From positions 83,307 through 147,306 of the forward strand of contig JAEEIA010000060.1 in assembly GCA_016281125.1 (NCBI GenBank): a stretch of 64,000 nt of DNA. The letters run 5' to 3'. Positions 6,979 through 57,880 of the stretch are shown piece by piece. The notes under the pieces were generated by a model. It saw only the letters and a program-made list of their open reading frames with translations, searched no databases and was not told the origin of the DNA. The DNA is from Oscillospiraceae bacterium (GTDB lineage: Bacteria; Bacillota; Clostridia; Oscillospirales; Ruminococcaceae). Position 1 is the stretch's first letter. Every line of letters begins with the position of its first letter. A program made the position numbers and the translations under genes.

Positions 6979-7089
6979 AAAATGGGATTCTTAAAGGCCA
7001 GCAGCCCTTAAGCGGGGTTTGGGTGAATTTGCGGTGCAAACTCAGAGCGAAGCGGGCGAACGCCCCCTTATGAATCAGCCGGAGGCACC
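6979..7089 (-). repeat. GGTATC-end structured repeat, copy G (divergent, with a ~30-nt insertion)
   Basis: The reverse complement aligns to copy E: GGGATTCTTAAAGGCCAGCAGCCCTTAAGCGGGG...GGGCGAACGCCCCCTTATGAATCAGCCGGAGGCACC. It overlaps the last codons and the stop of the AI-2E gene. Confidence 0.7.
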
Positions 7090-8186
7090 TCAATAATCAG
7101 CGCATACAAAACGGCGGCAGCCGGGACGCCGAGCAGCATTCCGGCTGCGCCGCAGAGTCCGCCGCCGACCACAATCGCGGCCATGACCCACGCGGGCGGA
7201 AGGCCGATTGAATGCCCGACCACCCGCGGATAAATCAGATTGCTCTCGATTTGCTGGAGGACGACAATATACACCAAAAACCAGAGTGCGGCATCCGGCT
7301 TTACCAGCAGCAGAAGCAGTGCGCACGGTACGGTTCCGGCAATCGGTCCGAAATACGGCACGATATTCGTGATGCCGATGACCGTGCCGATCAGCACCGG
7401 AAACGGAAAATGGAACAGCCGCATCCCGCCCCAGCACAGCACCCCGAGAATCAGCGACTCTCTGCACTGTGAACCGAGAAACCGTGCAAACGTGCCGCAG
7501 ATCATCCGAAGCCGCCGCAGAAGCCGCAGCATTTGTACGCAGCCGCCCCTCCTGCCGGAGAGTGCCAGCAGCTCCCGCCTCAGCCGCGGCTTGTCCGCGA
7601 GCAGATACAGCGAAAACACCGTCCCGATGCCGATATCCAGCAGCACGCCGAGCAGCGCTGCCGTTCCGTCGCAGGTTCGGTGCAGCAGCGACGGAATGCG
7701 CGTCCGGAGCTCCGCAAGCAGGTTTTCGAGCCTTGCCTGCGGGAACAGCGCCGCCAGCTTCGTATCCGTGAAACGCCTCGCCCACCGGATCAGATTATCG
7801 CTGTAAATGCTGATATTTTCCGAGATCATACGCATCGAGGCCGTCACCTGCGGCACCAGGATACACAGCAGACTGATCAGCACCAGCAGCGGCGGCAGGA
7901 TCGCACCGGTCAGCGCCGCCGGCCGGATCCAGCCTGTTCGCACCGGATGCCGGCGGCTTTCCGCAAATGCGGTCAGATCTGCGCGCAGCCGCTCATAGGA
8001 CGGCTCCAGCATCGTTGCGAACAGCACCCCGAGCAGCAGCGGACGCAGCACATGCAGCAGACGACGCAGCATGGCAAGCACGCTCTGGCCGTGCAGCAGC
8101 AAGGCTGCCAGCCCGAGCAGTACCGCGCCGCTGCCGGTGATGATCCGGAACAGCGGCTCCCGGAACAGTGTTTGCTTCTGCTGCAT
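7068..8186 (-). CDS. AI-2E family transporter (PerM-like permease)
   Basis: 372 aa polytopic membrane protein with NIVPYFGPIAGTVP and IYPRVVG motifs typical of AI-2E/UPF0118. Confidence 0.8.
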   Translation of the reverse strand: MQQKQTLFREPLFRIITGSGAVLLGLAALLLHGQSVLAMLRRLLHVLRPLLLGVLFATMLEPSYERLRADLTAFAESRRHPVRTGWIRPAALTGAILPPLLVLISLLCILVPQVTASMRMISENISIYSDNLIRWARRFTDTKLAALFPQARLENLLAELRTRIPSLLHRTCDGTAALLGVLLDIGIGTVFSLYLLADKPRLRRELLALSGRRGGCVQMLRLLRRLRMICGTFARFLGSQCRESLILGVLCWGGMRLFHFPFPVLIGTVIGITNIVPYFGPIAGTVPCALLLLLVKPDAALWFLVYIVVLQQIESNLIYPRVVGHSIGLPPAWVMAAIVVGGGLCGAAGMLLGVPAAAVLYALIIEVPPADS

Positions 8187-8201
8187 GGGGTTTCTCCTTT
8201 C

Positions 8202-8708
8202 TCAGACGGTCAGGCTGTTGAACATCATCGCCAGCCGGTTCCATGCCGCGAGATTGAGCTCTCCCGTTTCCGGCAGACCGGCCAGCTGCTGCAAGCTCCT
8301 GACGGCAGCCTCCGTTTCCCCGTCAAATACGCCGGACATCCCGGCAGGCGCAATATTGGCATATCGCTTTGCCGCCAGATTCAGCAGGCTCTGCACAAGC
8401 AGCACCTGCTCTCCGCTGTCGCCGCGCCGCAGCAGAAAGCTGCCGGACGGGAATACGCGTAGCGGGATTGCTTCTGCGGTCAGTCTGCGGTATGCCTCCG
8501 TAATCTGATTCCAGGTCTGCCCGTCGATCTCGCCGGTCACGGGCAGACCGTAAGCCTCCTGAAACGCGCGGACGGCCAGCGCCGCTTCCTCGGAATATTC
8601 CTTCTGCGGCAGGACAATCGGGATGCGGCTGTCCCGCAGTGCGACCTGATAGAGCATACCGAGAATCTCCTCGATATGCTCCTGCTTCTGAGCTTCTGTA
8701 TACAGCAT
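8202..8708 (-). CDS. Peptidoglycan-binding domain protein (two PG_binding_1-like repeats)
   Basis: 168 aa. Two copies of the AVRxFQxxxGLPxTGExD motif. Confidence 0.7.
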   Translation of the reverse strand: MLYTEAQKQEHIEEILGMLYQVALRDSRIPIVLPQKEYSEEAALAVRAFQEAYGLPVTGEIDGQTWNQITEAYRRLTAEAIPLRVFPSGSFLLRRGDSGEQVLLVQSLLNLAAKRYANIAPAGMSGVFDGETEAAVRSLQQLAGLPETGELNLAAWNRLAMMFNSLTV

Positions 8709-8718
8709 CGCTGCCTCC

Positions 8719-10120: not shown

Positions 10121-10900
10121 TCAAAGCTGCGGCATGTTGTTGTAGTATGTGAAATCGCCGCCGTTTACGGGATCATCGCCCGCGGGCAGCGGAATCAGAA
10201 CGAAGGTCTGCACGGAGGTGACGCCCGGAAAAACCGGCACATCCGTGCTGTGCTCGCGGTAATAGCCCTCTGCCTGCACGGAAATATCGTAGAGGAAGGA
10301 GACCGGATGCCGCTGGTCTGCGGAGGGCGGCGGCGCCGGCACCGTGATGGTATCCGTTTCGCCGCTGTCATCGGTGATACGGAGCGCAGTCAGCTCCGGC
10401 TCGCCGTCGATAAACCGCACAACGGTCACGGCCGCACCCGCAACCGGACGCGCACCCTCCGCCGTGACGGTGTGTACGCGGATACAGCCGGTGTATGCGC
10501 GCTTCGGCAGTGCAGGCTCCTCCGGCGCGTCAAAGCGTTCCGGTTCTTCCTGTTCTGTCACGCGCTTAGGTTCCCCGTCAGCGGAACGCTCTGAGGATGC
10601 CATCGCCGGAACGGAAAACGGAGGAGGAGGAGGCAGAACTGGCTTCGCTGAGTTAGGCGGCGGAGGCGGAGGAGGCAAGACCGGTTTCGGTACGCTGGGC
10701 GGCGGGGGAGGAGGAGGCAAGACCGGTTTCGGTGCGCCGGGCGGCGGGGGCGGAGGAGGCAAGACCGGTTTCGGTACGCCGGGCGGTGGGGCAGGCTTCG
10801 GCTTTTGATTCGCCGGCGGAGAAAGATTCTGGCTGGCGTACATGCGGAACAGCTCCTCGCGGTAGCGCCGGGCGGTGTCCTCAAATTCCTGACGGTTCAT
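10121..10900 (-). CDS. Proline-rich protein with a C-terminal SleC prodomain-like beta-sandwich
   Basis: ORF 10121..11047. Start chosen at MNRQEF (ATG 10898-10900, RBS AAAGGAG). Contains a (PKPVLPPPPPPPxx)x3-4 repeat. The tail IRVHTVTAEGARPVAGAAVTV...DDSGETDTITVPAP...ISVQAEGYY resembles the SleC N-terminal pre-pro region. Confidence 0.65.
   Translation of the reverse strand: MNRQEFEDTARRYREELFRMYASQNLSPPANQKPKPAPPPGVPKPVLPPPPPPPGAPKPVLPPPPPPPSVPKPVLPPPPPPPNSAKPVLPPPPPFSVPAMASSERSADGEPKRVTEQEEPERFDAPEEPALPKRAYTGCIRVHTVTAEGARPVAGAAVTVVRFIDGEPELTALRITDDSGETDTITVPAPPPSADQRHPVSFLYDISVQAEGYYREHSTDVPVFPGVTSVQTFVLIPLPAGDDPVNGGDFTYYNNMPQL
10615..10800. repeat. 42-bp in-frame tandem repeat (about 4.5 copies) encoding the poly-proline block
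   Basis: Three near-identical units GGCGGCGGRGGMGGAGGAGGCAAGACCGGTTTCGGTRCGCYG at 10656-10697, 10698-10739 and 10740-10781, plus degenerate flanking copies. Confidence 0.9.
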
Positions 10901-11988: not shown

Positions 11989-12078
11989 AGCGGCGTGATG
12001 CGGGGATGCCATATCATATATTTCGTGTCCGGTGTCGGGACACGCAAAGAGGAAAAAACAGTACAGAAATCATTTGAG

Positions 12079-12110
12079 AAAGCCGTTCATTCTTGGACGG
12101 CTTTTCTGAT
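12079..12110 (+). terminator. Putative intrinsic terminator after the comEC-like gene
   Basis: Stem AAAGCCGT/ACGGCTTT with a 10-nt loop, followed by a T-rich tail. Confidence 0.45.
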
Positions 12111-12119
12111 GAAAATCTC

Positions 12120-12148
12120 TTGAAATTCGAGTTAGCATATGCTATAAT
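12120..12148 (+). promoter_or_regulatory. Consensus sigma-A promoter of the AT-rich accessory operon, overlapped by a palindromic operator
   Basis: TTGAAA (12120-12125), 17-nt spacer, TGC-TATAAT (12143-12148). Palindrome TAGCATATGCTA at 12133-12144. A further ATGCTAAC half-site at 12167-12174. Confidence 0.65.
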
Positions 12149-12202
12149 ATAATTATGAGTTTGCGGATGCTAACTTTTGCTTGATTCGTGAGGTGATGCT
12201 GT

Positions 12203-12847
12203 ATGCTGAAATACACTTGTAAATACTGGATTTTCCTTGCGCCGCTTGTCAGAAAAACGCTGAAAAAGCATTACGGAAAGGCGTTTGCAGATAAGACGAT
12301 GCGAAAGGCGAAATCGGAATATCGGGCAATGCTGGATCGTGTGGATGATATCGGCGCAGATAATCCGATGGCTTCAAATATCTATATGAGCTTTGTGTTT
12401 TTCGCAGTGTATAAGGCTGCAAACGGAAAAATTACGATCAAGGCTCTGAGAATGACCGCACATGAAGCGATGGAATGGAAACCGCTGAGATTGATGGGAA
12501 TATTCGTAAACGCCAATAAATCAAGCGGTATCCGGGCGATTCGCAAAATGATGCTGAAAAATGCTGAATGGCTCGAAAAGCACCCGGAGTACAAGAAAGT
12601 ATCGTGGGACTTCAATTTTGACGAAAGCAAGCATCGTGACGGATATTACTATCATTTTACGCAGTGCCCGCTGAACAGCTTTGCAAGGCGGGAGGGAATG
12701 CTTGATGTACTGCCGGTGATGTGCGATATGGACTTTCTGACCGCCGGTCTGATGCACGCAAAGCTGCACCGTGAGAATACGCTTGCAGGCGGCGGAAAAA
12801 TATGCGATTACTGGTATGTGGGAGATAAAGTGAAAAATCCGAAATAA
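12203..12847 (+). CDS. L-2-amino-thiazoline-4-carboxylic acid hydrolase-family (ATC-hydrolase-like) protein
   Basis: 214 aa. Cys-containing C-terminal signature CPLNSF...MCDMDF...RENTLAGGGKICDYWY, recalled from that family. Function unknown. Confidence 0.55.
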   Translation: MLKYTCKYWIFLAPLVRKTLKKHYGKAFADKTMRKAKSEYRAMLDRVDDIGADNPMASNIYMSFVFFAVYKAANGKITIKALRMTAHEAMEWKPLRLMGIFVNANKSSGIRAIRKMMLKNAEWLEKHPEYKKVSWDFNFDESKHRDGYYYHFTQCPLNSFARREGMLDVLPVMCDMDFLTAGLMHAKLHRENTLAGGGKICDYWYVGDKVKNPK

Positions 12848-12963
12848 CAGCTCGGATATAACAGAAAGCAGCACCGCGTACAAAGCGTTTTTTATGCTGA
12901 TATGCTTTTTGCTATTGGCTTTTGTATTTTCAGGAATGCAGCAGACAGTTGGGAGCGTGTATT

Positions 12964-13452
12964 ATGATATATCTGCAATTATGCTTATACTGCCTGCTGT
13001 TCACGGCAATGGTCAAATACGCCGTCCGCGGCGGCGCGATCAACGGACTGTATTTCTATCCGAAAGCCGTGCAGGAACGGGCGTATGAGATCGGTCTGAC
13101 CGACAGGGAAACGGTGAAAAAGCAGCGCAGCCGCTTTATGACGCTGTTCTATATCGTAATGCTGACTGCCCTTGTACTTATCATCGCCGTGTGGAATCGT
13201 GTCAGCAGCTTCAAAACTGCCTATTTGCATGCACTTCTCTTTCTGGAGGTCATGAATCTCTATGACGGCGTTGTGATCGACAAGCTGTGGGTTGGGCACA
13301 GCAAATTCTGGATTCTGAAAGGCACGGAGGATATTCCGTTTGTGCAGACATGGACGCAGGTGCTGAAAAAGCGTTCATTTCTCGCAGTGATATGGGTGAT
13401 CGGGGCAGCAATCGCCGCAGGACTTGCGGTTCTGTCTGCAAAAGCAATATAA
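12964..13452 (+). CDS. Membrane protein, unknown function (paralogous to 15118..15618)
   Basis: ORF 12922..13452. Start chosen at MIYLQL. About 4 TM segments. Shares an LYDG/LYDM-containing helix pattern with the last gene of the operon. Confidence 0.55.
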   Translation: MIYLQLCLYCLLFTAMVKYAVRGGAINGLYFYPKAVQERAYEIGLTDRETVKKQRSRFMTLFYIVMLTALVLIIAVWNRVSSFKTAYLHALLFLEVMNLYDGVVIDKLWVGHSKFWILKGTEDIPFVQTWTQVLKKRSFLAVIWVIGAAIAAGLAVLSAKAI

Positions 13453-13465
13453 AGGAAGTGATCGA

Positions 13466-14101
13466 ATGAAAGATTATGAACGGGGCAAAGAAAAACAGAC
13501 CGCAGAAACAATCATGAAAAAGAAACAGTTTATAAAAGCAGAAATGGACAGGCAGATTTCAGCGGAATTGAGCGAGAAAATCTGGAAACAGTCTACTGCT
13601 TTATTGGCCCGGATTCTTCGGAAATATGCAGATATTCCGGATGGCGTTCATGCACATACGGATGTGTTCATATTTCCGTCAGCCGCAGTTTACCTTATGG
13701 CACAAAAATATGTGCGCAAAGAACAGGCGTATTCTTTCATTGAAAACGCCGCCGCTGAAAGAACGGAAAAACTCGGAAGCATGCTTGCTAAAACCATGAA
13801 ACTGCCCTTTGTGCGTGACATCTTTATCAATATGATGGATCGGATGACAAAAAAGAAGTTCGGGAAAGAATGCGGTTTTCAGAATCGGTTTTATCCGAAG
13901 AAAAAAGGAGAATACCGCATGGATATCCTGGCCTGTCCGTATTGCAAATACTTCACGGAGCTTGGTTGTCCGGAACTGACAAAAATATTCTGCGAGAATG
14001 ATGAGCGCGGCTACGGAAATCTGCCCGGATTAAAGTTTGAACGCAAGACAACACTTGGAAAGGGCGGAGATCGCTGCAATTTCTATTTCCGTAAAGTATG
14101 A
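13466..14101 (+). CDS. Second ATC-hydrolase-family protein
   Basis: ORF 13424..14101. Start at MKDYERG (RBS AAGGAAG). C-terminus CPYCKYF...FCENDE...KTTLGKGGDRCNFYF parallels the gene at 12203. Confidence 0.55.
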   Translation: MKDYERGKEKQTAETIMKKKQFIKAEMDRQISAELSEKIWKQSTALLARILRKYADIPDGVHAHTDVFIFPSAAVYLMAQKYVRKEQAYSFIENAAAERTEKLGSMLAKTMKLPFVRDIFINMMDRMTKKKFGKECGFQNRFYPKKKGEYRMDILACPYCKYFTELGCPELTKIFCENDERGYGNLPGLKFERKTTLGKGGDRCNFYFRKV

Positions 14102-15111
14102 AAAGAGAGGAAAAGAAGCGGTTTATGAAATTTGATAAAAGTGATAAAGTGGTAAAAGCGCCCGACGGGCTGAATCATCCGCTTTACAAACTGACAAAGG
14201 CTGTCGTAAAGGCAGCAAAAATCAAAAACAGCCTGGTCGGTTCAAAAGAAGAAGTCCTTGCGAAAGCAGCGAAAATGAACGCAAAAAGCCGCCATTTCAT
14301 CATGCCGACCGATAACAAAGCGCACTATACCGATCATCTGATACAGGGACAGTATCACTGCATTGAAATTGATATTGAAAAGACACGGCGCAAACATGCG
14401 ATACTCTTTGTGTTCGGCGGCGGAATGATCCTCGGCTCTGACAAGGGCGATATCGGACTTTCAAGAAAGATTGCAGAGAGAACAGGCTCGGATGTGTGGT
14501 TCCCGTATTATCCCCTATGCCACGAACACGATATGCTTGAAAATGTGCAGATGATATTGGAATGCTGTGAGAAAATGCTGACATTCTATAAGCCTGAAAG
14601 CATCGTATTTCTTGGTTTTTCATCAGGCGGTGCGCTGATACTCGACCTTATCACATACATCAACGAGCTGAACGGCAGCGGCAAAGATATTCCCATGCCC
14701 GGATTGCTGATTCCCGTATCGCCGGGAAGTGTTCCCGTTACCGATGCGGAAAAAGCCGCAATCAATAAACTTGATGAAAGGGATATCATGATACCTGCTG
14801 AATATATGTACACTGCCCGTGAAATCATGTGTCACGGCAGGGATATTCCCGAAAAATATCTTGCAACTGCGCACGGCGACTTCCGCAATGCTCCCATGGC
14901 GCATTTCTATTACGGTTCTGCGGAAACGCTGTATGCCTTTGCACCGAGCTATGCGGAAAGTTTCAGAAAAGCAGGCGCAAAGTGCGTCATTCATGTAGGA
15001 AAGGGAATGCATCACTGCTATGCAATCCAATACTTCATTCCCGGCTGCAAGCCTGCATTTGACGAGGTCATGGGGCTGATCCTGTATCATATCCAGAAGC
15101 ATAAGGGGTGA
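14098..15111 (+). CDS. Alpha/beta hydrolase (fold-3 esterase/lipase type)
   Basis: 337 aa. Oxyanion FVFGGGMILG and nucleophile elbow GFSSGG. ATGA overlap with the upstream stop. Confidence 0.7.
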   Translation: MKREEKKRFMKFDKSDKVVKAPDGLNHPLYKLTKAVVKAAKIKNSLVGSKEEVLAKAAKMNAKSRHFIMPTDNKAHYTDHLIQGQYHCIEIDIEKTRRKHAILFVFGGGMILGSDKGDIGLSRKIAERTGSDVWFPYYPLCHEHDMLENVQMILECCEKMLTFYKPESIVFLGFSSGGALILDLITYINELNGSGKDIPMPGLLIPVSPGSVPVTDAEKAAINKLDERDIMIPAEYMYTAREIMCHGRDIPEKYLATAHGDFRNAPMAHFYYGSAETLYAFAPSYAESFRKAGAKCVIHVGKGMHHCYAIQYFIPGCKPAFDEVMGLILYHIQKHKG

Positions 15112-15117
15112 GATACA

Positions 15118-15618
15118 ATGATACTGACATTTTTCCTTGCAATCGTATTCTGTGCTGCTATTACGATCATGCTTTTATCGGCGGTTGCATTTGTACAGAA
15201 GAAAGAATTCTTCTCGTCCGCACCGAAGGAAGCACAGGAAGTGATTCTGCCGAGAGAACATGAGTTATTCTGCGGTGCAAGAGCAATCGGCTGGACGCTG
15301 ATGATATTCAGCATACTCATGATTGCAGGCGTAGGCGTCATCTCAATTTGGGACGGTTTCAGAAGCGGCTTTACGTTTTTTCAGTTCTTTCTGCGATTTG
15401 TTTTCATCTTCACCGTTTACAAACTATACGACATGATCTGCTTTGATTATTTTCTTCTGATGAAATTTCAGTTCTTTCAGTTTTATTACCCGGAGATCAA
15501 AAGCGTATATGCGGGAAGAAAATACGGATACAACATCAAAAGCCAGCTGTTGAAGCTGCTTGTCATTTTTCCTGCGGCCTCCGCACTTGCGGCCTGGATA
15601 TGCACATTATTTCAATAA
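15118..15618 (+). CDS. Membrane protein, unknown function
   Basis: 166 aa. Four hydrophobic segments. Last gene of the AT-rich operon. Confidence 0.55.
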   Translation: MILTFFLAIVFCAAITIMLLSAVAFVQKKEFFSSAPKEAQEVILPREHELFCGARAIGWTLMIFSILMIAGVGVISIWDGFRSGFTFFQFFLRFVFIFTVYKLYDMICFDYFLLMKFQFFQFYYPEIKSVYAGRKYGYNIKSQLLKLLVIFPAASALAAWICTLFQ

Positions 15619-15628
15619 CACCGCAAAA

Positions 15629-15745
15629 GTATATGATAAAGGGATCACTGCACGGGAATCTGAAATGGAGATTCGCACGCTTCGCTGTCCGCCAAAGGCT
15701 CTGACCTTTGAAAAGCATGGAAACGAAGGAGATACATTGTTTTCA
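15629..15745 (+). repeat. Possible degenerate copy J of the GGTATC-end repeat
   Basis: GTATATGATAAAGGGAT...AATCTGAAATGGAG...CGCCAAAGGCTCTGACCTTTG...ACGAAGGAGATAC. The interior aligns loosely with copy F (CGCCAAAGGGACTTGTCCCTTTGG) and the ends are an imperfect inverted repeat. Confidence 0.3.
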
Positions 15746-15762
15746 TCACAACGGAATGCTGA

Positions 15763-15797
15763 AGGGCGCTGATTGATTTCAGCGCCCTGTGTTTTTA
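15763..15797. terminator. Stem-loop/terminator between convergent genes
   Basis: AGGGCGCTGA (15763-15772) pairs with TCAGCGCCCT (15779-15788), followed by GTGTTTTTA. Confidence 0.6.
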
Positions 15798-15804
15798 TAT
15801 CCGA

Positions 15805-31207: not shown

Positions 31208-31293
31208 GGGGCTCCGCCCGGACTTTGCCAAAGGAATCATCCCTATGGCGAAGTCTGAGGCGGAGCCCCCATAATCAATCCGTCGGAGATATT
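31208..31293 (-). repeat. GGTATC-end structured repeat, copy H
   Basis: The minus strand reads AATATCTCCGACGGATTGATTATGGGGGCTCCGCC...GGCGGAGCCCC, a long hairpin. It starts 4 nt after the GH5 stop. Confidence 0.7.
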
Positions 31294-37582: not shown

Positions 37583-37666
37583 GGTATCGCTCCGCGATGA
37601 TTCTGAATGGGCTCCGCCCAAACCCGCCAAAGGGACTTGTCCCTTTGGAATCCCATTTTGAATGCC
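37583..37666 (+). repeat. GGTATC-end structured repeat, copy F
   Basis: GGTATCGCTCCGCGATGATTCTGAATGGGCTCCGCCCAAACCCGCCAAAGGGACTTGTCCCTTTGGAATCCCATTTTGAATGCC. It begins 2 nt after the stop. Confidence 0.8.
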
Positions 37667-39367: not shown

Positions 39368-39477
39368 AGTATCCGCGATGTATGCAGACGGAGGACTCTG
39401 CCCCGCCCCGTCCCGGTAAAACAATCCTGCCGGACAAGGGGCGGGCGGAGCCTCAGAGCCAATGCATCCGAGATATT
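39368..39477 (+). repeat. GGTATC-end structured repeat, copy I (divergent, both termini present)
   Basis: AGTATCCGCGATGTATG...long GC hairpin CTCTGCCCCGCCCCGTCC/GGACAAGGGGCGGGCGGAG...CAATGCATCCGAGATAT. It fills the nagA-ddl spacer. Confidence 0.6.
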
Positions 39478-40564: not shown

Positions 40565-40565
40565 C

Positions 40566-43847: not shown

Positions 43848-43878
43848 GCCATATTCCGGCTTAGTCTGATGAGAAAGC

Positions 43879-43937
43879 GGTATCTCCGATGGATTCAAAA
43901 TAGGGCAGCGCTCCGTGATCAATCCATCGGAGATACC
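43879..43937. repeat. GGTATC-end repeat, copy A: two termini in inverted orientation (minimal form)
   Basis: GGTATCTCCGATGGATT (43879-43895) and its exact complement AATCCATCGGAGATACC (43921-43937), separated by 25 nt. Confidence 0.85.
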
Positions 43938-47257: not shown

Positions 47258-47586
47258 CTGCATTCTTCCTCTCTGCGGAATCCGGACTGTTTCATTCCGC
47301 ACAGCGTTATTATGTGCAGATTTTTGCGCTGCAATCCGTCCGGATCTGCGGCAAACTCCGGCATCAAAAATCGGAAACGGATATAATTCAGCATTTTGCA
47401 TTTTCAGATCGGAATATGCATGACAGTTCCTGACAACAGATGCAAATGTTCGGCAAAAACAAACACGCTTCGTCGGAACATGCCGCACTATAAATCTCAA
47501 AATTTCGTATATACGTTATTTTCATTCTGTTTTGCAGTTTCATTTCTTTCTCGACAGAATCAGCCGTTCTTCGTGATTCTTCGCTC

Positions 47587-47615
47587 TTGCATTTTGTTCT
47601 CCGGTGTGCTAAAAT
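47587..47615 (+). promoter_or_regulatory. Sigma-A-like promoter upstream of spo0A
   Basis: TTGCAT (47587-47592), 17-nt spacer, TGC-TAAAAT (47610-47615). Confidence 0.45.
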
Positions 47616-48946: not shown

Positions 48947-48964
48947 TCGCCGCAAACTGAAAGC

Positions 48965-49057
48965 GGTATCTCCGATGGATTGATAATGGGGTGAGGCTGC
49001 CTGCAAACGCATCGTGAAGCGGGCGGGAGAGCCACGATTCTAATTCGCCGGAGGCAC
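48965..49057 (+). repeat. GGTATC-end structured repeat, copy B
   Basis: GGTATCTCCGATGGATTGATAATGGGGTGAGGCTGCC...GAAGCGGGCGGGAGAGCCACGATTCTAATTCGCCGGAGGCAC. The right end matches the copy G terminus. It lies between the stop and the terminator. Confidence 0.8.
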
Positions 49058-49071
49058 TTTTCTGCATGATG

Positions 49072-49110
49072 AAAGCACCGCAGCGTTTGAACTGCGGTGC
49101 TTTCTTCTTT
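49072..49110 (+). terminator. Intrinsic terminator
   Basis: AAAGCACCGCAG-cgtttgaa-CTGCGGTGCTTT followed by CTTCTTT. Confidence 0.75.
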
Positions 49111-49181
49111 CACGTTTCGGCAAGATTCGCATAGAATAAAGCGATCCGGGAACGGAAATCCCTACACAGGAAGTGATTCGT

Positions 49182-49826
49182 ATGAAACATATCTCACTGC
49201 TCGCAGCGGGCGGTGACCTCCGGCAGCTGACCGCGGCCGCGCGCCTTTCAGAACAGCACAGCGTCAGCGTCACGGGCTTTGACCGCTGCGGCACGCTGCC
49301 CGCGGGCATCACCCCGGCCGACCTTTCCGGCACGCAGCCGCAGTCTTTGGATGCGCTGCTCCTGCCGATGCCGGTCACACAGGACGGCCTGTTCCTTTAC
49401 ACGCCGCTCTGCAGCGGAATGCTCCGCCTCTCAGAGCTGCTGCCGCTTGTGAAAGCAGGCGGCACCGTGTTCGGCGGGCGGTTCCGCGACAGCGAGCGCA
49501 GCATGATCGAAGCTGCGGGACTGCGCGCCGCCGACTACGCGAAAGAGGAAACCTTTGCGCTCCGCAACGCCGTCCCGACCGCAGAGGGCGCAATCCAGAT
49601 CATCATGCAGGAGCTGCCGGTCGTATTGCAGGGACTCCCCTGCCTGATTCTCGGGGCGGGCAGAGTAAGCCGCGCCTTGCAGCAGCGTCTGCGTGCGCTC
49701 GGCGCAGAGGTGACCGTCGCTGCCCGGCGGTGTGCTGACCTTGCGCGGAGGGAGGGCGAGGAGGGGAAACCGGTAACATTGACACGTTTCCAATCCGTCG
49801 GAGATACCGCTTTCCCGACAAACTAA
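49182..49826 (+). pseudogene. dpaA: Dipicolinate synthase subunit A (SpoVFA/DpaA), C-terminally truncated
   Basis: The N-terminal ~190 aa align with my recollection of B. subtilis DpaA (GGDxRQL...GFD; NAVPTAEGAI; ILGAGRVSRAL...LGAEVTVAARRCADLAR). The frame then runs into repeat copy C and stops. No dpaB follows. Confidence 0.55.
49755..49814 (-). repeat. GGTATC-end repeat, copy C (left boundary uncertain)
   Basis: The minus strand reads GAAAGC-GGTATCTCCGACGGATTGGAAACG... The terminus is at 49792-49808. Confidence 0.6.
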
Positions 49827-51775: not shown

Positions 51776-51821
51776 CTTCCCCCGTATTGTTATATAGAAT
51801 TATCACCGTCCGGAAAATCGC

Positions 51822-51850
51822 TTGCATTTTTCCGGGAGATGTGCTATACT
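51822..51850 (+). promoter_or_regulatory. Sigma-A type promoter for the permease gene
   Basis: TTGCAT (51822-51827), 17-nt spacer, TGC-TATACT (51845-51850). Confidence 0.5.
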
Positions 51851-51882
51851 TATCCCTGCAAAAATATGGAAGGATCTGTAAC

Positions 51883-53028: not shown

Positions 53029-53044
53029 GGTTAAAGGTATCTCT

Positions 53045-53095
53045 GACGGATCCGGAACAGCGGCGCTGCCCCCATCCCTCTGGTTAAGGGCTGCC
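53045..53095 (+). repeat. GGTATC-end repeat, copy D (3'-truncated)
   Basis: GGTATCTCTGACGGATCCGGAACAGCGGCGCTGCCCCCATCCCTCTGGTTAAGGGCTGCC aligns with the 5' two-thirds of copy E. Confidence 0.65.
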
Positions 53096-53129
53096 GCGCA
53101 AATTCTATTGTATTTCGCAGACAAATCAA

Positions 53130-53163
53130 ATGCCCCGAAGCATATGAAAACGCTTCGGGGCAT
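53130..53163. terminator. Strong hairpin between convergent genes
   Basis: ATGCCCCGAAGC-N10-GCTTCGGGGCAT, a 12-bp stem. Flanked by A-rich sequence (plus strand) and T-rich sequence (minus-strand reading). Confidence 0.6.
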
Positions 53164-53229
53164 TGTATCTTATACCGTTGTTAAGATAAATCAGAATATA
53201 TCATAGTGTTTTCAGTCATCCTCGCTTGA

Positions 53230-54498
53230 TCATTTTGTCCGTTGTTTATTTTGGCTGGGCGCGGGGCGCGAATGCGAGGGCTCGGGGGGCGAAAAACTAG
53301 GGGGATAGGGGGAATAAGCCGCTGGCGGCGCATGGACAGCCTTCACATTGTAGTAATCCTCCGGCACATCCGCAAGCCCGCTGCCGTAGTCCGCACGGTT
53401 GCCGCCCGCGGTGATCTCCGTGAACCAACCGTCCACTGCATACATCTTCCGGTTCGGATCCGGCACGCCGTAAGGCTGATCCATATAAACGGTGTTATTG
53501 CAGAAGCTGTTCTGATGCCCCCAGCCCTCGGCCTGTTCATGAATCTCAAATGCCGCGACAATCTTCGGATTGTTGTTCCGGTATCCGGTATTGTCATGCA
53601 CGGAGCAGCCGTTCCCTGCAATATCGACAAAGCTGCCCGCATAATTCTCGCCGGTCATGCCGTCGCCGTAAAAGGTGCAGAACGCGATCTCTGTGCCGGT
53701 CGTGTATTCCTTGACGTCAACATCCTCCGCGGCAATGTTTTTGAAGGTGCAGTGCAGAATTTTGTTGTTGTCGCATTTGTAGTCAAAGCCGGTCGTGGAC
53801 TTTGCGCTGCCGACATACACGCCCTCGCCGTAGCCCGGGGAAACCAGCCCCGTGTCATGGATGCTGCAATGCGAAACGGTGCATTCCGAGCTGCCGTCCC
53901 GCAGGGCAACCGCCTCCGCACCGGTCTGATAAATCTCGCAGTTCCGGAGCACGGAATGACAGGAATGATCGAACACGACGCCCTTTTGCGCATTCGTGAT
54001 TTTCAGGTTTTCGAGGATCCAGTAATCCCCCTGAATGTGCAGCACATAGCCGTGCGCCGTGCCGCTGCCGGTCAGCACAGGCGGATTCTCCGAATCTGCG
54101 GCCGTGAGCGTGACGGGCGCCTCCGCAGTGCCGGCCGCTTTGGTATCAATTTTATCCGCGCCCTGATACTTTGTATAATCATAGGTGCCGGGGGCAATGC
54201 GGATCACATCGCCAGGCTTTGCGCTCCGCATTGCGGTGAAAATCCCTTCAATATCGTTCACATCAACGGTATGCGCCGGTGCTCCGGGCGTATCCGCGTT
54301 CCGTTTCAGCAGCGTCAGGTCACGGGCGTCCAGTGTGCCGTCCTGATTCCGGTCGGCAGCCGCAGGATCCGTCAGCGCTGCGTCCGGCTTTGCAAGCAGC
54401 CAGTCCCGCAGCGCAGAAAACGGCAGTTCCGCTGCAAAAGCAGGCAGGGCAAGGAGCATCAAAGCCGCAGCTGCGGCGAGCATCCGGATTCGCTTCAT
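53230..54498 (-). CDS. Secreted right-handed beta-helix (pectate-lyase-fold) protein with an N-terminal dockerin-like segment
   Basis: ORF 53230..54540. Start at MKRIRML (RBS GGGGAGGGAG). Signal peptide, DRNQDGTLDARDLTLLKR, repeated beta-helix turns (NCEIY.., HCSIHD.., HCTFKN..) and a Pro-rich tail. Confidence 0.65.
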   Translation of the reverse strand: MKRIRMLAAAAALMLLALPAFAAELPFSALRDWLLAKPDAALTDPAAADRNQDGTLDARDLTLLKRNADTPGAPAHTVDVNDIEGIFTAMRSAKPGDVIRIAPGTYDYTKYQGADKIDTKAAGTAEAPVTLTAADSENPPVLTGSGTAHGYVLHIQGDYWILENLKITNAQKGVVFDHSCHSVLRNCEIYQTGAEAVALRDGSSECTVSHCSIHDTGLVSPGYGEGVYVGSAKSTTGFDYKCDNNKILHCTFKNIAAEDVDVKEYTTGTEIAFCTFYGDGMTGENYAGSFVDIAGNGCSVHDNTGYRNNNPKIVAAFEIHEQAEGWGHQNSFCNNTVYMDQPYGVPDPNRKMYAVDGWFTEITAGGNRADYGSGLADVPEDYYNVKAVHAPPAAYSPYPPSFSPPEPSHSRPAPSQNKQRTK

Positions 54499-55951: not shown

Positions 55952-55952
55952 C

Positions 55953-55981
55953 TTGACTTTTTTCCCGATCTGTGCTATACT
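55953..55981 (+). promoter_or_regulatory. Sigma-A promoter of the ARE ABC-F leader
   Basis: TTGACT (55953-55958), 17-nt spacer, TGC-TATACT (55976-55981). Confidence 0.6.
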
Positions 55982-55995: not shown

Positions 55996-56240
55996 GAAAG
56001 AGGTGAGAGGATGAAATAATAATTCGCTTTTGTTCACATGAATATCCGGTCAGTACACATGAAGGCATGTGTACCGGTCTGTCATGCTGTCAAAAGTGGA
56101 TTATGTTTTCATAACCTCTTTTTTGTTTGTATATTCTGAAATTGCAGCCGCGCTCTGCGCAGGCGTTTCTGCGGGCGTTCCCCGCTTTTGAGGTTATCGG
56201 ACATAACGGAACTGTTTGGCGGCAAACGGTTCCGTTTTTG
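55996..56240 (+). promoter_or_regulatory. Attenuator leader: 2-codon uORF (ATG AAA TAA, 56011-56019) plus alternative helices and terminators
   Basis: RBS AAAGAGGTGAGAGG lies before the uORF. AAAGAGGT (55997-56004) can pair with ACCTCTTT (56114-56121). Hairpin GGATTATG/CATAACC plus a T-run at about 56098-56127. Confidence 0.6.
56205..56240 (+). terminator. Leader terminator immediately upstream of the ABC-F RBS
   Basis: AACGGAAC (56205-56212) pairs with GTTCCGTT (56229-56236), followed by TTTTTG. Confidence 0.6.
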
Positions 56241-56271
56241 TATCCGGAGCCGCATCAAAGGAGGAATGCGT

Positions 56272-57795
56272 ATGTCACAGATCAGTGTAAAGGATCTGAC
56301 CTTTTACTACGACGGCAGCTTTGACAATGTGTTTGAGCACGCCTCGTTTTCCATCGACACAAACTGGCGTCTTGGCTTTATCGGGCGCAACGGCAAGGGC
56401 AAAACGACCTTCCTGCGCCTGCTGTGCGGGGCGTACCCCTATCAGGGCAGCATTGAGAGCGCCGTGCCGTTTTCGTATTTTCCGTATCCGGTCACGCCGG
56501 AGCAGATGCAGCAGCCCGCCGCAGATTTTCTGGAGGCGCTGCGTCCCGGCTGCGAGCAGTGGCGCGTGATCTGCGAGCTCTCCCTGCTGGATACGGATGC
56601 AGAGGTACTGTACCGCCCGTTTGCGCAGCTCAGCCCCGGCGAACGGACAAAGGTACTGCTGGCGCTGCTCTTTTCCGGCGGAAACGATTTCCTGCTGATC
56701 GACGAGCCGACGAATCATCTGGATCAGGATTCCAGAGAAACGGTCAAGCGCTATCTTGCAGGAAAGCAGGGGTTCATTCTTGTTTCCCATGACCGCGACC
56801 TGCTCGATGCCTGCATTGACCATGTACTTGTTCTGAACCGCAGAACCATTACGGTGCAGAGCGGAAATTTTACGGTCTGGCAGGAGAACAAGCAGCGGAG
56901 CGATCAGTTTGAAGAGGCAGAAAACGAAAAGCACCGCCGCGAAATCAAAAAGCTGAAACAAGCGGCAAAGCGCACGGCGGACTGGGCGGATCAGAACGAG
57001 CGCACCAAGATCGGGTTTGATCCGGTCAAAGAGCACGACCGCTGCATCAGCTCCCGCTCGTTTATCGGAGCCAAAACCAAGAAGATGCAGAGCCGTGTGA
57101 AGCAGATCGAAAACCGCATCAGCCGCGAAATCGCGGAAAAGGAAGATCTGTTGCAGGACGTGGAGCAGACCGCCCCGCTGAAGCTGACGCCGCTTTCCCA
57201 TCACAAAAGCACGCTGGTGACGCTCCGGGATCTCACGCTGCGGTATCCGGGTGCAGAGCCGCTGTTTGCGCATCTGAATCTGAGCGTGCAGCGCGGCGAC
57301 CGCATCGCCCTGCACGGCAAAAACGGCTGCGGCAAATCCACGCTGCTGCGGCTCCTGCTGCATCAGTCCGGCACGGAAACGGCGGGCATCCTGCCGGAAG
57401 CGGACGGCGTCTGCGCGCTTGCTTCCGGGCTGGTGATTTCATGGGTGCCGCAGGATACCTCCGGGCTGACCGGCACGGTTCCGGATTACTGCACGGAAAA
57501 CGGGCTTGATCAGACGCTGTTCTGCACACTGCTCCGCCGGATGGATCTTTCGCGCGCACAGCTTGCAAAGCCGTTTTCGGATTACTCTGAGGGACAGAAG
57601 AAAAAGGTGCTGCTCGCGGCGAGCCTTGCAACGCCCGCGCATCTGTACATCTGGGACGAGCCGCTGAATTATATCGACGTTTTTTCCCGCATGCAGATTG
57701 AGGAGCTGCTGCTGAGCTGTCAGCCGACCATGCTGTTTGTCGAGCATGACGTCCGGTTCCGCGAGCGCATCGCAACAGGGACAGTCATGCTGTAA
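56272..57795 (+). CDS. Lsa-like ARE ABC-F ribosomal protection protein
   Basis: ORF 56188..57795. Start at MSQISVKDL (RBS AAAGGAGGAA). The N-terminus SIDTNWRLGFIGRNGKGKTTFLRLL resembles Lsa/Vga-type proteins. Two ABC cassettes, a charged linker and no TM domain. Confidence 0.75.
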   Translation: MSQISVKDLTFYYDGSFDNVFEHASFSIDTNWRLGFIGRNGKGKTTFLRLLCGAYPYQGSIESAVPFSYFPYPVTPEQMQQPAADFLEALRPGCEQWRVICELSLLDTDAEVLYRPFAQLSPGERTKVLLALLFSGGNDFLLIDEPTNHLDQDSRETVKRYLAGKQGFILVSHDRDLLDACIDHVLVLNRRTITVQSGNFTVWQENKQRSDQFEEAENEKHRREIKKLKQAAKRTADWADQNERTKIGFDPVKEHDRCISSRSFIGAKTKKMQSRVKQIENRISREIAEKEDLLQDVEQTAPLKLTPLSHHKSTLVTLRDLTLRYPGAEPLFAHLNLSVQRGDRIALHGKNGCGKSTLLRLLLHQSGTETAGILPEADGVCALASGLVISWVPQDTSGLTGTVPDYCTENGLDQTLFCTLLRRMDLSRAQLAKPFSDYSEGQKKKVLLAASLATPAHLYIWDEPLNYIDVFSRMQIEELLLSCQPTMLFVEHDVRFRERIATGTVML

Positions 57796-57799
57796 ATAA

Positions 57800-57880
57800 G
57801 GTATCTCCGATAGATTCAAAATGGGGCGCTGCCCCATACCCCGCTTAAGGGCTACTAGCCCTTAAGAATCCCGTTTTTAA
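57800..57880 (+). repeat. GGTATC-end structured repeat, copy E (reference copy)
   Basis: GGTATCTCCGATAGATTCAAAATGGGGCGCTGCCCCATACCCCGCTTAAGGGCTACTAGCCCTTAAGAATCCCGTTTTT. It starts 4 nt after the stop. Internal hairpins GGGGCGCTGCCCC and TTAAGGGC/GCCCTTAA. Confidence 0.85.

Follow-up and report, generated by a model that had tools for sequence, protein, structure and literature searches.

A gene-oriented family of short interspersed repeats with a triplex-type covariation signature in rumen and gut Oscillospiraceae

BOX repeats of bacterial genomes can encode a stop codon, and an excess of repeats is found between convergent genes (PMC3049150). A precedent for repeats that follow the sequence rule of an intrastrand triplex is provided by BoxC/PIT/TMECO; DNA triplexes of the purine motif keep their stability at neutral pH (TMECO), and purine arm, pyrimidine arm and pyrimidine tract were identified as the sole order able to form an RNA triplex (PMC4666352). 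Here we describe a repeat family detected in a 64-kb stretch of Oscillospiraceae DNA (the window), in which a first-pass annotation had reported ten copies, A to J, of a MITE- or REPIN-like structured repeat with imperfect terminal inverted repeats, a description that our analysis supports.

The terminus recurs far above chance, confirming the original observation: GGTATCTCCGAYGGATT with at most three mismatches has seven matches in the window against 0.2 expected, and the terminus 27-mer has five against 0 expected. A covariance model, R1, was built from the canonical copies and run unfiltered on the window and with default filters in a pooled search. It recovered eight of the ten claimed copies (A, C, D, F, G, H, I and J; Table 1), matching F once on each strand because F is a palindrome. 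Copy E forms a strong hairpin (-58.4 kcal/mol) with terminal inverted repeats and degenerate termini, and is therefore treated as a diverged relative despite its low R1 score. The membership of copy B is doubtful, as this copy was not detected by R1 in the window, folds no better than shuffles and retains fragments only (CGCTTCGCT, CCAAAGG..CCTTTG and GGAGATAC). One additional degenerate copy, absent from the earlier list, lies tail-to-tail with A; R1 does not reach it at E<=10, and it was read directly and compared with L011:5600-5683.

Table 1. Copies of the repeat in the window, with the parts of copy J. R1 scores are in bits, with matched positions in brackets; gap is the distance in nt from stop codon to element.
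Feature	Position	Strand	R1 score	Fold z	Gap	Parts and neighbours
J, canonical full arm	57800..57880	+	97.7 (57800-57877; unfiltered window run)		4	Follows ABC-F gene; evidence also from fold and upstream ORF Pfam
J terminal stem-loop	57800-57816	+				GGT-ATC-TCC-GAT-AGATT
J hairpin H1	57823-57835	+				GGGGC-GCT-GCCCC
J mirror tract	57839-57843					CCCCG
J hairpin H2	57844-57866	+				CTTAAGGGCT-ACT-AGCCCTTAAG
J tail tract	57869-57872	+				TCCC, then GTTTTT
D, full arm	37583..37666	+	53.4 (37583-37659; unfiltered window run)		2	Type-2 terminus (GGTATC-GC-TCC-GC-GATGATT); H1 GGGC/GCCC with matching shorter mirror tract CCCG; follows ROK-family gene
A, full arm	6979..7089	-	59.7 (6979-7089; pooled default-filter search)			Type-3 terminus (GGT-GCC-TCC-GGC-TGATT); ~33-nt extra hairpin module in H1 loop; AI-2E transporter ORF runs 22 nt into A, whose TAA is its stop codon
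Additional degenerate copy	~6869..6945	+				Type-2-like terminus (GCGCTGTGCGATGATC); H1 GAGGGC...; mirror tract CCTCCCG
C	31208..31293	-	32.1 (31214-31293)	-5.2	4	Terminus AATATCTCCGACGGATT; H1 arm lengthened into long outer hairpin GGGGGCTCCGCC...GGCGGAGCCCC, enclosing H2-like hairpin; follows GH5 cellulase/dockerin gene
E, diverged hairpin	39368..39477	+	7.6	-7.0	0	Terminal inverted repeats AGTATCCGCGATGTATG ... CAATGCATCCGAGATATT; adjoins stop of amidohydrolase (NagA-like) gene
F, short form	43873..43937	.	32.5 + 31.2 (43879-43937)	-6.9	31	59-nt near-perfect hairpin, two inverted termini around H1-like centre, preceded by GAAAGC; between phosphopentomutase-like gene (stop 43847) and next ORF (ATG 43954)
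G	48959..49062	+	24.3 (48965-49046)		18	Terminal inverted repeats, interior unrelated; left type-1 terminus, right inverted type-3 terminus (GCCGGAGGCAC); between flavin-reductase stop (48946) and terminator-like hairpin 49071-49104
H, terminus only	49755..49814	-	13.7 (49759-49808)		~80	Exact terminus (GAAAGCGGTATCTCCGACGGATTGG); opposite strand is last codons of truncated dpaA-like ORF (49173-49826)
I, decayed arm	53036..53111	+	18.5 (53036-53111)		7	GGTATCTCTGACGGATC..., H1 GGCGCTGCC, half of H2; follows CitMHS transporter; hairpin 53129-53164 after I
B, doubtful	15629..15745	+		-0.4		Scattered family fragments only

The family is large, and frequent among Oscillospiraceae of rumen and gut. 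Across the sequences searched, R1 gave 97 matches in the window and 60 genome loci and 160 in metagenome loci. Alignments A3 and A4 took in 247 matches, of which 233 were left with duplicates removed; these non-redundant copies come from 1.5 Mb of MAG and metagenome sequence of Oscillospiraceae/Ruminococcus from rumen and gut, the hosts being Oscillospiraceae, Ruminococcus and Clostridia MAGs. The first reading had not recognized a named element, and in agreement with this a search of Rfam gave no match to the repeat and a search of the literature found no description of the family.

The basic arm of about 78 nt begins with an A-rich flank that is semi-conserved (AAAGC, AAAGA or ATAA), followed by a terminal stem-loop, GGT-(3-5 bp)-TCC-(3-5 bp)-GGATT, whose stem co-varies among copies. 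Two hairpins with purine-rich 5' arms come next, H1 (about GGGGC/GCCCC) and H2 (about CCAAAGGGAC/GTCCCTTTGG), and the arm ends in CCCATTTT. A common form is a composite of about 195 nt with a BIME-like architecture, in which two unlike arms lie tail-to-tail around a conserved AT-rich centre of about 35 nt and the ends are imperfect inverted repeats; the family also includes half-elements, short hairpin forms and insertion variants. The first-pass annotation had correctly described the hairpins of the interior and the imperfectly inverted termini (seen in F, G and E); the composite, the semi-conserved 5' flank and the three-way covariation reported below were additional to it. Double changes are seen in 20 of 23 stem pairs, 95% of stem cells are paired against 85.5% in shuffles, and no shuffle or slid register does as well as the structure itself. 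The closing helix GGATT/AATCC is weak and has little support, two of its five positions having 16-19 unpaired cells per pair.

A long same-strand ORF ends between -30 and +40 nt from the GGTATC end in 143 of 226 copies, compared with 36 of 196 mirrored controls (Fisher p = 3e-21). The gene-oriented, stop-proximal placement claimed from the window is thereby upheld in two independent data sets (65/93 and 78/133 versus mirrored controls of 17/73 and 19/123), and the gaps within the window, remeasured for C to J and with A overlapping its stop codon, are as first described. Most distances are 0-7 nt in the sense orientation, and in some copies the stop codon is part of the element. The upstream genes have unrelated functions (Pfam). 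The relation of individual copies to terminators required revision: it is G and I, not B and E, that have a stop codon before them and a terminator-like hairpin after them, and H is located after, not before, the terminator-like hairpin of its minus-strand gene (49864-49826, minus strand).

The presence of a T run after a structured region raises the question of whether the copies are themselves repeated intrinsic terminators. The 3' end of the arm has this form, the short forms G, L005 and L086 are long hairpins, with AAAG at the left end and CTTTT at the right end, that resemble bidirectional terminators, and copies are enriched between convergent genes. We nevertheless regard this explanation as very improbable: canonical arms have 7 nt between H2 and the T run, and the closing helix is the weak one noted above; about 15-20 nt beyond many copies at the fetched loci there is, by eye, a separate hairpin that is GC-rich and has its own T run; and D, E and F are intercistronic, inside apparent operons, with 17-30 nt left before the next start codon (D because a same-strand ORF begins about 26 nt after it).

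Neighbouring copies comprise 38 tail-to-tail, 14 tandem and 0 head-to-head pairs, with spacers that cluster at 31-43 nt, and orientation therefore tracks the gene and not the replichore. This does not support the earlier proposal of single-strand-specific insertion (IS200/IS605 or RAYT style), and it bears on the reading of the repeat as a non-autonomous derivative of such an element that inserts only into the lagging-strand template. Subterminal hairpins, a semi-conserved short motif at the left end and the lack of a visible target-site duplication are in keeping with such an origin. However, both orientations occur within the one window and only 31-43 nt apart, always following the adjacent gene, and the elements carry terminal inverted repeats; a local tblastn with an IS200 TnpA query, a search of low sensitivity and weak as evidence, gave 0 matches in 1.5 Mb of element-rich DNA. 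This origin appears scarcely credible.

Copies occupy non-orthologous sites. J and the copy at L017 are 93% identical yet lie downstream of unrelated genes; among ABC-F orthologues, one at 93% identity carries the element and those at 77-83% are without it. Synteny with a 95%-identical locus (L083) breaks exactly at G, the L083 counterpart of I begins at 0 nt from the stop codon (29.3 bits), and F recurs at unchanged spacing in two metagenome contigs encoding the identical protein. Individual copies look neutrally decaying (L039 vs L209; J vs L213), the latter orthologous pair diverging about as fast as the adjoining coding sequence. Stem mismatches are symmetric (113 G.U, or G.T in DNA, versus 100 A.C), and the stems show no sign of RNA-specific wobble tolerance.

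Symmetric and neutral decay is what would be expected of a DNA element that is purely selfish (a MITE or REPIN) and has no role as RNA. Its hairpins and triplex-type fold would serve mobilisation only, through a transposase recognizing a single-stranded or extruded DNA form, and the observed pattern would arise from an asymmetric preference for A-rich WWWRM targets, often supplied by stop codons, and from the purging of harmful insertions. Presence is sporadic among orthologues, near-identical copies occur at unrelated loci of different MAGs, C is nearly absent at -7 to -2 of the WWWRM flank, about 16% of ORFs end within the element (at -18 to -25), and the neutral-pH stability of TMECO DNA triplexes also favours this explanation. 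We consider it possible but rather unlikely. The stop-to-element distance is not fixed but even over 0-7 nt, so that the stop codon itself is not the target, and AT-rich promoter regions are unused. As the first-pass annotation had noted for the window, there was no transposase among the 20 ORFs scanned with Pfam, and no target-site duplication or clean empty site was found in the loci compared. Selection on orientation would, moreover, still mean that the element affects expression to some extent in an orientation-dependent way.

On the 3' side of each hairpin lies a short pyrimidine tract that reads as the parallel complement of the purine arm in that hairpin (for example GAGGG/CCCTC/CTCCC and GGGGAC/GTCCCC/CCCCTG). 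For H1, the arm and linker pairs are GGGGC/CCCCG, GAGGGC/CTCCCG, GGGGAC/CCCCTG, GGGAC/CCCTG, GGGC/CCCG and GGAGC/CCTCG; for H2, the arm and tail pairs are AGGG/TCCC, GAGGG/CTCCC, GGAGGG/CCTCCC, GGGG/CCCC and GAGGGG/CTCCCC. This covariation is significant by permutation (p <= 0.0002), its relations are replicated in the metagenome set, and in the correct register an arm A stands opposite a tract T in 15 of 22 cases, versus 0-2 of 20-28 in slid registers. The covarying classes are subfamilies, so independent evolutionary events number perhaps 8-10, not hundreds. Judged from sequence, the relation matches the rule for an intrastrand triplex and is as would be expected for a small triple helix. 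The predicted triplexes are short, at 4-6 triples, and a run of three to four C+.G-C triples is unfavourable at neutral pH. For each pyrimidine-motif reading of the sense strand, the opposite DNA strand can be read with equal validity in the purine motif.

The order of arm and tract is the only one capable of forming an RNA triplex (PMC4666352), the mirror tracts are better conserved than the hairpin loops, and the elements start in strict sense orientation 0-7 nt past stop codons. These features could indicate a true cis-acting structured RNA of the 3'-UTR, selected at each site and not primarily mobile, which, through a bound protein or as an acid-responsive triple-helix switch, might control mRNA decay or translation termination. 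Such a role is improbable given that the upstream genes share no common function, orthologous gene ends in relatives are without the element, copies decay and number in the hundreds with terminal inverted repeats, and the second arm of the composites of about 195 nt would be antisense in any read-through transcript. An RNA-level function, as originally suggested, is unproven, given the symmetric stem mismatches, the divergence of one orthologous pair at about the rate of adjoining coding sequence and the lack of the element at more distant orthologous gene ends.

The explanation that we favour, with a probability of roughly one half, is that these short, non-coding, modular repeats form an interspersed family of rumen and gut Oscillospiraceae that had not been described before, and that they are spread by a putative trans-acting enzyme that would recognize the terminal stem-loop. 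From their position, copies would be transcribed as the 3'-UTR of the upstream gene or as intercistronic RNA, and would persist where, and in the orientation in which, expression is unharmed. In the sense RNA, small pyrimidine-motif triplexes may clamp the two hairpins, most likely making a barrier to 3'-to-5' decay that does not terminate transcription, like the 3' adducts of REP and BOX; purine-motif triplexes are an equal possibility on the complementary DNA strand, as in BoxC/TMECO. The WWWRM flank could be a target-site preference which, together with selection, could alone explain stop proximity and orientation. A 3'-UTR barrier and a neutral passenger are both candidate roles for these copies.

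The family is a new one of the REP/BIME/BOX type and carries an unusual triplex signature. In kind it belongs with the REP/BIME, BOX, ERIC and Correia elements, it shows MITE-like behaviour too, and its hairpins follow the same intrastrand-triplex sequence rule as BoxC/PIT/TMECO of E. coli.

The repeat family is real and abundant, and a full-text literature search for its sequence, or for repeats in Ruminococcaceae or Oscillospiraceae, returned nothing relevant. Its kind is already known (REP/BIME, BOX, MITE-like), and three traits are unusual there: copies are associated very tightly and with a fixed polarity with stop codons, a Firmicute clade carries a composite resembling a BIME, and intrastrand triplex modules have comparative support. 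Within the window (~57% G+C, with promoters of Firmicute type) the 17-nt terminus GGTATCTCCGAYGGATT had seven matches at up to three mismatches, where 0.2 were expected, and a 27-mer of the repeat occurred five times against an expectation of zero. All ten claimed copies (A-J) were inspected in their orientation, and a covariance model of the canonical ~78-nt arm (R1) was built from 14 gap-free canonical copies with a structure drawn by hand, then applied to the window unfiltered and in a pooled search with default filters. Eight of the ten copies listed in the first-pass annotation were matched by R1 at 13.7-97.7 bits, while E scored only 7.6 bits and B went undetected (table). Doubtful copy B lies at the 3' edge of a low-GC island that may have been horizontally acquired. 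The promoter-like repeats flagged by a repeat finder were rejected as ordinary sigma-A promoters outside the element family.

Copies of the repeat and other features of the window
Feature	Position in window	Strand	R1 score (bits)	Remarks
Copy J			97.7	Half-element
Copy A			59.7	Extra hairpin in H1 loop
Copy D			53.4	Half-element
Copy F			32.5 + 31.2	Short hairpin form; one match per strand because palindromic
Copy C			32.1	
Copy G			24.3	Terminal inverted repeats around a foreign interior
Copy I			18.5	
Copy H			13.7	Terminus alone
Copy E			7.6	Strong hairpin (z = -7.0); terminal inverted repeats, degenerate termini
Copy B			no match	Fold no better than shuffled sequence
Extra degenerate copy	about 6869-6945	+		Tail-to-tail with A
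42-nt tandem repeat	10619-10786			~4 units, 83-86% identical to reference unit; G-rich (GGAGGAGGAGGCAAGACCGGTTTCGGTACGCTGGGCGGCGG); inside an ORF with no Pfam match
Low-GC island	about 12000-16000			45% vs ~57% G+C; strand opposite to neighbours; has genes for two ATC_hydrolase-family proteins and one alpha/beta hydrolase
Promoter-like CTTGCATTTTTCCGG..TGCTATAMT	35073-35106, 47586-47615, 51820-51853, 55952-55981			-35 and extended -10
Synteny break with L083	48959-49072			Aligned to L083 1-1188; break exactly at copy G
dpaA-like ORF	49173-49826	+		DpaA_N domain; 217 aa only, looks truncated at element; last codons are antisense of terminus H (…FQSVGDTAFPTN*)
Third motif TGGGCGCGGGGCGCGAATGCGAGGG	53256-53280	+		
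tRNA	59369-59441	-		
23-nt direct repeat CGAAGTATAAACTTTTTTGCCGC	59552-59598			Exact; two copies spaced by 24 nt, immediately upstream of the tRNA

An exact scan of the 17-mer against 185,579 species genomes gave at least 96 loci. Among the matches listed, ~60 are real elements, all in Oscillospiraceae, Ruminococcus or Clostridia MAGs, with carrier MAGs from the gut of buffalo, goat, sheep, deer, pig, horse and rabbit; the remainder are chance matches within genes of unrelated phyla. A longer pattern identified 114 further loci in metagenomes. R1 found 97 copies in the first (genome) set and 160 in the second (metagenome) set, of which 247 were taken into alignments and 233 were non-redundant (per 1.5 Mb of related DNA). 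Extrapolated from the roughly 10 copies in the 64-kb window, a few hundred are to be expected in the host genome. The Rfam comparison foreseen in the first-pass annotation assigned the repeat to no family at or above threshold and gave no credible E-value: gathering thresholds returned one tRNA and nothing else from the window, and at E<=5 no family fell on the elements of six element-rich loci. Small interspersed repeats have been little studied beyond a few model bacteria, and this family seems to occupy about one site per 6-7 kb in abundant, mostly uncultured fibre-degrading rumen and gut bacteria, with expected effects on MAG assembly, gene-end annotation and 3'-UTR prediction. Many fetched contigs end within or beside an element, and some stop codons are located inside one.

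We examined placement without gene calling, by scoring same-strand ORFs of at least 80 codons that end between -30 and +40 nt of the element 5' end, with opposite-strand ORFs ending at the element tail as a mirror control. The gene-oriented, stop-proximal placement originally proposed from the window was borne out in the genome set (65/93 vs 17/73 for the control) and the metagenome set (78/133 vs 19/123; Fisher p = 3e-21 for both combined). Stop-to-element distances are evenly spread over a 0-7-nt peak, the gaps remeasured in the window agree with those first reported, and ~16% of ORFs end within the element at -18 to -25, where a TGA or TAA in GGATTGATAATGG-type spacers serves as the stop (copy A, for example). 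The upstream genes are functionally unrelated according to Pfam (AI-2E transporter, GH5 cellulase with dockerin, ROK protein, amidohydrolase, phosphopentomutase-like protein, flavin reductase, CitMHS transporter and ABC-F protein).

Orientation tracks the adjacent gene and not the replichore. Minus-strand copies at 7, 31 and 49.8 kb of the window are interspersed with plus-strand copies, and tail-to-tail pairs are located between convergent genes. Single-strand-specific insertion of the IS200/IS605 or RAYT style, one of the origins suggested in the first-pass annotation, is disfavoured because orientation follows the gene and both strands are used in the window, as they also are within pairs 31-43 nt apart; nor do the copies keep the one orientation relative to replication, on the lagging-strand template, of IS200/IS605-derived PATEs. 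A replication origin had been suspected at the strand switch at ~33-36 kb, with dnaA/dnaN at 36-39 kb, which mattered because gene and replication orientation would have been confounded; Pfam identifies a ROK-family gene and an amidohydrolase instead. Integron attC sites (RYYYAAC ... GTTRRRY, in unidirectional cassette arrays) were also rejected, as the termini read GGTATC.../...GATACC and the neighbours are housekeeping genes on both strands.

With respect to terminators, it is G and I, rather than B and E as initially described, that lie between the stop codon and a terminator-like hairpin, while H follows a terminator-like hairpin and does not precede one. Copies D, E and F lie 17-30 nt ahead of the next start codon. 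Many copies in the fetched loci precede, as judged by eye, a separate GC-rich hairpin and T run; a simple terminator finder under-calls long-loop hairpins. Some short forms themselves fit the GC stem and U tract of an intrinsic terminator; canonical arms, unlike an intrinsic terminator, have a T run 7 nt from the second hairpin and a weak closing helix.

The canonical arm consists of a terminal stem-loop and two hairpins, H1 and H2, followed respectively by pyrimidine tracts termed the linker and the tail (together, the mirror tracts), and reads GGT-ATC-TCC-GAT-GGATT / NNN / AAT-GGGGC-NNN-GCCCC / AAA-CCCCG / CCAAAGGGAC-NNN-GTCCCTTTGG / AA-TCCC-ATTTT. An alignment of 97 copies had 95% of stem cells paired vs 85.5% in shuffles, with changes on both sides at 20 of 23 pairs, and no shuffle or slid register matched the observed pairing values. 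The terminal mini-stem exists in three covarying forms (ATC/GAT; GTC/GAC or GCC/GGC; and the extended ATCGC/GCGAT), and H2 occurs as CCAAAGGG, CTTAAGGG, CCAGAGGG, CCGGAGGG or CTGGGG. A putative closing helix, GGATT/AATCC, is weakly supported; another, AAATGGG/CCCATTT, was rejected because the linker follows H1 and the tail follows H2, each independently, so that H1 variation is unmatched in the tail. The five bases 5' of the terminus are semi-conserved as WWWRM (AAAGC, AAAGA, ATAA) and nearly free of C; this flank is probably part of the element, given its pairing with CTTT at the opposite end of short forms. One subfamily carries an additional ~20-nt outer module (CTAAGGAATCRCTGAT..AATC) with a TAA inside. 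A second interspersed repeat, AAAGTTTCGGTCAAGCCTTTTCAAAGGCTTGCRGRGTCSAGRGGCAG...GCTCACCGCAGTGAGCGAAATACC, had 38 matches in 32 sources (L016, L019, L024, L066, L068, L073 and other loci), none of them in the window, and often adjoins the element's T-rich tail or takes its place (CCCA joined to AAATAAAAGTTT...), which suggests a nested insertion or a longer composite.

Neighbouring copies less than 400 nt apart are arranged tail-to-tail in 38 cases and in tandem in 14, with none head-to-head, and the tail-to-tail spacers cluster at 31-43 nt. Alignment of 15 tail-to-tail pairs revealed a ~195-nt composite in which two arms of different subtypes flank a conserved AT-rich centre. On the left, the terminus is of type 1 and the consensus has GGGGC plus CCAAAGGG; on the right, a GCC/GGC terminus is usual, together with GGGGGC or GAGGGC and, in many cases, CTTAAGGG or CCAGAGGG. 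The two arms differ by compensatory changes. The composite follows BIME logic, with two REP types and linkers. Copies E, F and G and the ~195-nt composites also have the properties of MITEs, namely terminal inverted repeats (imperfect here), a length below 300 bp and no coding capacity.

Beyond mere C-richness, the tract 3' of each hairpin complements that hairpin's purine arm in parallel orientation and therefore mirrors the 3' arm. For H1, the 5' arm, 3' arm and linker vary together as GGGGC/GCCCC/CCCCG, GAGGGC/GCCCTC/CTCCCG, GGGGAC/GTCCCC/CCCCTG, GGGAC/GTCCC/CCCTG, GGGC/GCCC/CCCG and GGAGC/GCTCC/CCTCG; for H2, the purine core and tail vary as AGGG/TCCC, GAGGG/CTCCC, GGAGGG/CCTCCC, GGGG/CCCC and GAGGGG/CTCCCC. 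When tracts were swapped among unique arm/tract combinations in a permutation test, full matches exceeded expectation for both H1 (28 vs 16, p < 0.0002) and H2 (4 vs 0.6, p = 0.0002), and no swap attained the observed match; the same class relations were found again in the independent metagenome set. Arm A residues stood opposite a tract T in 15/22 cases in the correct register vs 0-2 of 20-28 when slid by 1-2 nt. G-quadruplex and i-motif readings leave this in-register mirroring of A/T interruptions unexplained, and we know of no templated mutational process that makes mirror repeats. As the covarying classes are subfamilies, the independent covariation events number perhaps 8-10.

In both data sets three consecutive blocks thus obey the base rule for intrastrand triplexes, as judged with permutation and register controls, and a triplex is predicted from sequence. 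A class III (pyrimidine-motif) intrastrand triplex, in its textbook design, has the purine arm first, then the pyrimidine arm and last the pyrimidine tract, with a loop between successive blocks; this is the sole triplex order available to RNA (PMC4666352). The sense strand of the arm has this design and the complementary strand the class I purine-motif order. Any such triplexes would be short, with 4-6 triples, and rich in C+.G-C. That the three-way covariation reflects selection for real nucleic-acid triple helices, with the two hairpins of each arm clamped by their own 3' pyrimidine tracts in the sense transcript as class III triplexes of C+.G-C and U.A-U triples, appears rather unlikely to us. 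The comparative evidence for constraint on a triplex-type fold is unusually clean. If the selection reading is true, the family would parallel ENE-type 3'-end protection in bacteria and, because C+ triples need protonation, might conceivably switch mRNA stability in response to acid in fermenters of the rumen and gut. To our knowledge, it would also be the first bacterial repeat family, and among very few natural RNAs, with a covariation-supported triplex.

At a probability of roughly one half, we favour the reading that copies act within the upstream gene's 3' UTR or in intercistronic RNA, most likely as a barrier to 3'-to-5' decay. Judging from position, they would be transcribed there, and the sense-oriented RNA could adopt the class III fold. 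For such a barrier REP 3' adducts are reportedly a precedent. The likeliest effect would be a block to 3'-to-5' decay, as for REP and BOX 3' adducts (PMC3049150); interference with the terminating ribosome may also occur, because the structure begins 0-7 nt past the stop codon. The main alternative, held more tentatively, is that polarity and stop proximity arise from an asymmetric preference for A-rich targets plus selection, the fold serving mobilisation as DNA, where the purine-motif triplex of the G-rich strand would be stable at neutral pH. A test for RNA-level selection by G.U vs A.C asymmetry found none among 232 unique copies, G.T mismatches in stems (113) not being in excess of A.C (100). 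The strict stop-codon polarity makes testable the long-standing question of whether such repeats are passengers or 3'-end stabilisers.

Related loci were compared for signs of mobility. Copy J is 93% identical to a copy in a pig-gut Clostridia MAG (L017) with unrelated flanking genes. A 93%-identical orthologue of the ABC-F gene that precedes J has an element at J's position with the same ATAA spacer, its contig ending after 33 nt of the copy; four ABC-F orthologues at 77-83% identity have no element, and one of these has only a bidirectional terminator before a conserved convergent carbonic-anhydrase gene. Presence and absence were thus seen, but the surroundings were too rearranged for a target-site duplication to be defined. 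No direct repeat flanked F, G, the composites or the copies in L004, L005 and L077. No clean empty site was found either: when joined flanks were compared by BLAST with all loci, the sites recovered were all filled or partly deleted. A look-up of exact proteins, made to detect strain polymorphism, found the element in 2/2 identical-protein contigs for F and no record for two other proteins.

The window from 49 to 54 kb is 95% identical to L083 (Oscillospiraceae RGIG7605, water-buffalo omasum), which has copy I at the same site. Synteny between the two breaks at copy G: upstream of this point the window encodes a flavin reductase, and L083 a dockerin/LRR protein; at least one element therefore coincides with a rearrangement junction. 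The third motif, which also occurs in L083 (about 5370-5400) and L011 and has 15 matches in 10 sources overall, may be the end of another mobile element; its site differs by an indel, spanning 51 nt in the window vs 493 nt with long hairpins in L083.

A source of mobility was sought in several ways. In agreement with the first-pass annotation, which had seen no transposase in the window, Pfam identified none among 20 window ORFs scanned, and no RAYT (Y1) either; the G/H interval encloses the truncated dpaA. For an autonomous IS with the same termini, 24 outward-facing pairs 350-5000 bp apart had no recurrent length, most had other termini in between, and the three intervals that were inspected enclosed no transposase. 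An approximate IS200 TnpA query, used in a local tblastn, had no match in 1.5 Mb, at a low sensitivity that would miss distant RAYTs. In near-identical strains, substitutions accumulate in copies, breaking stems and mirror tracts, and some copies lose interior modules. Between L039:5054-5129 and L209, and between L079 and L123, elements diverge more than their flanks (~7 substitutions in 76 nt, or interior lost), which could be faster decay or metagenome consensus errors at repeats. Individual copies look weakly constrained by these comparisons while propagating lineages keep hairpins and mirror tracts, which is the pattern of a proliferating element.

Among known systems, the family is close in form to the REP/BIME elements of Enterobacteria and Pseudomonas. 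Both are short, extragenic imperfect palindromes in hundreds of copies, sited at gene or operon 3' ends and between convergent genes, with inverted pairing of two types that have compensatory differences and conserved linkers. REPs are co-transcribed and protect upstream mRNA against 3' exonucleases, and many reportedly lie within 15 nt of a stop codon. The present family differs in lacking sequence similarity and a GTAG-type head, in having a 3-5-bp terminal stem-loop rather than a long GC stem, in how strongly single arms are polarised towards the stop codon and in mirror tracts with triplex-type covariation; REP/BIME elements also have a cognate RAYT, and none was identified for this family among the 20 window ORFs scanned.

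Constraint on a triplex-type fold has also been argued for the intrastrand-triplex repeats of the BoxC/PIT/TMECO type. Those of E. coli and its relatives are the only described bacterial repeats with the triplex property (PMC4666352). Like the present family, they are multi-copy intergenic repeats whose blocks obey the purine/pyrimidine/Hoogsteen intrastrand-triplex rule (class III or IV on the C-rich strand, class I or II on the G-rich strand), with frequent inverted pairs of two types and no associated transposase. TMECO, from Proteobacteria, has almost invariant 9-nt blocks (CCCTCNCCC / GGGNGAGGG x2), which give little scope for covariation, and copies biased neither in orientation nor in distance with respect to genes (Holder et al. 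2015, PMC4666352). Its pattern CCCTCNCCC-N3-6-GGGNGAGGG-N3-GGGNGAGGG is absent here, the blocks being 4-6 nt and of other sequence; the present arms instead have two short modules (4-6 triples) inside a larger element, in Firmicutes, with real three-way covariation between subfamilies and strict gene-relative polarity.

Pneumococcal BOX/RUP/SPRITE, Yersinia ERIC and Neisseria Correia elements are likewise modular and MITE-like, with terminal inverted repeats and extensive secondary structure; they are over-represented between convergent genes and transcribed as 3' adducts, BOX repeats supply the stop codon of 36 genes, ERIC effects on mRNA depend on orientation, and IS partners or target-site duplications (TA for Correia) have been proposed (PMC3049150). 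Their sequence and host clades are unrelated to those here, and none has the mirror-tract signature or a stop spacing as tight as 0-7 nt. Mycobacterial MIRUs are short repeats that fill intercistronic gaps in one orientation relative to transcription and overlap stop/start codons. This single-orientation filling and overlap with stop codons are shared; unlike the family here, MIRUs are tandem direct repeats with small ORFs and not hairpin/inverted-repeat elements. In ENE-type triple helices (PAN, MALAT1, and plant and fungal transposable-element RNAs), a triplex in the 3' region blocks 3'-to-5' decay, and we know of no ENEs in bacteria. Their likeness to this family is a functional analogy that applies to the RNA reading only: a U-rich internal loop clamps an A-rich tail through U.A-U triples in ENEs, whereas the triples here would be mostly C+.G-C, between a hairpin and its own 3' pyrimidine tract.
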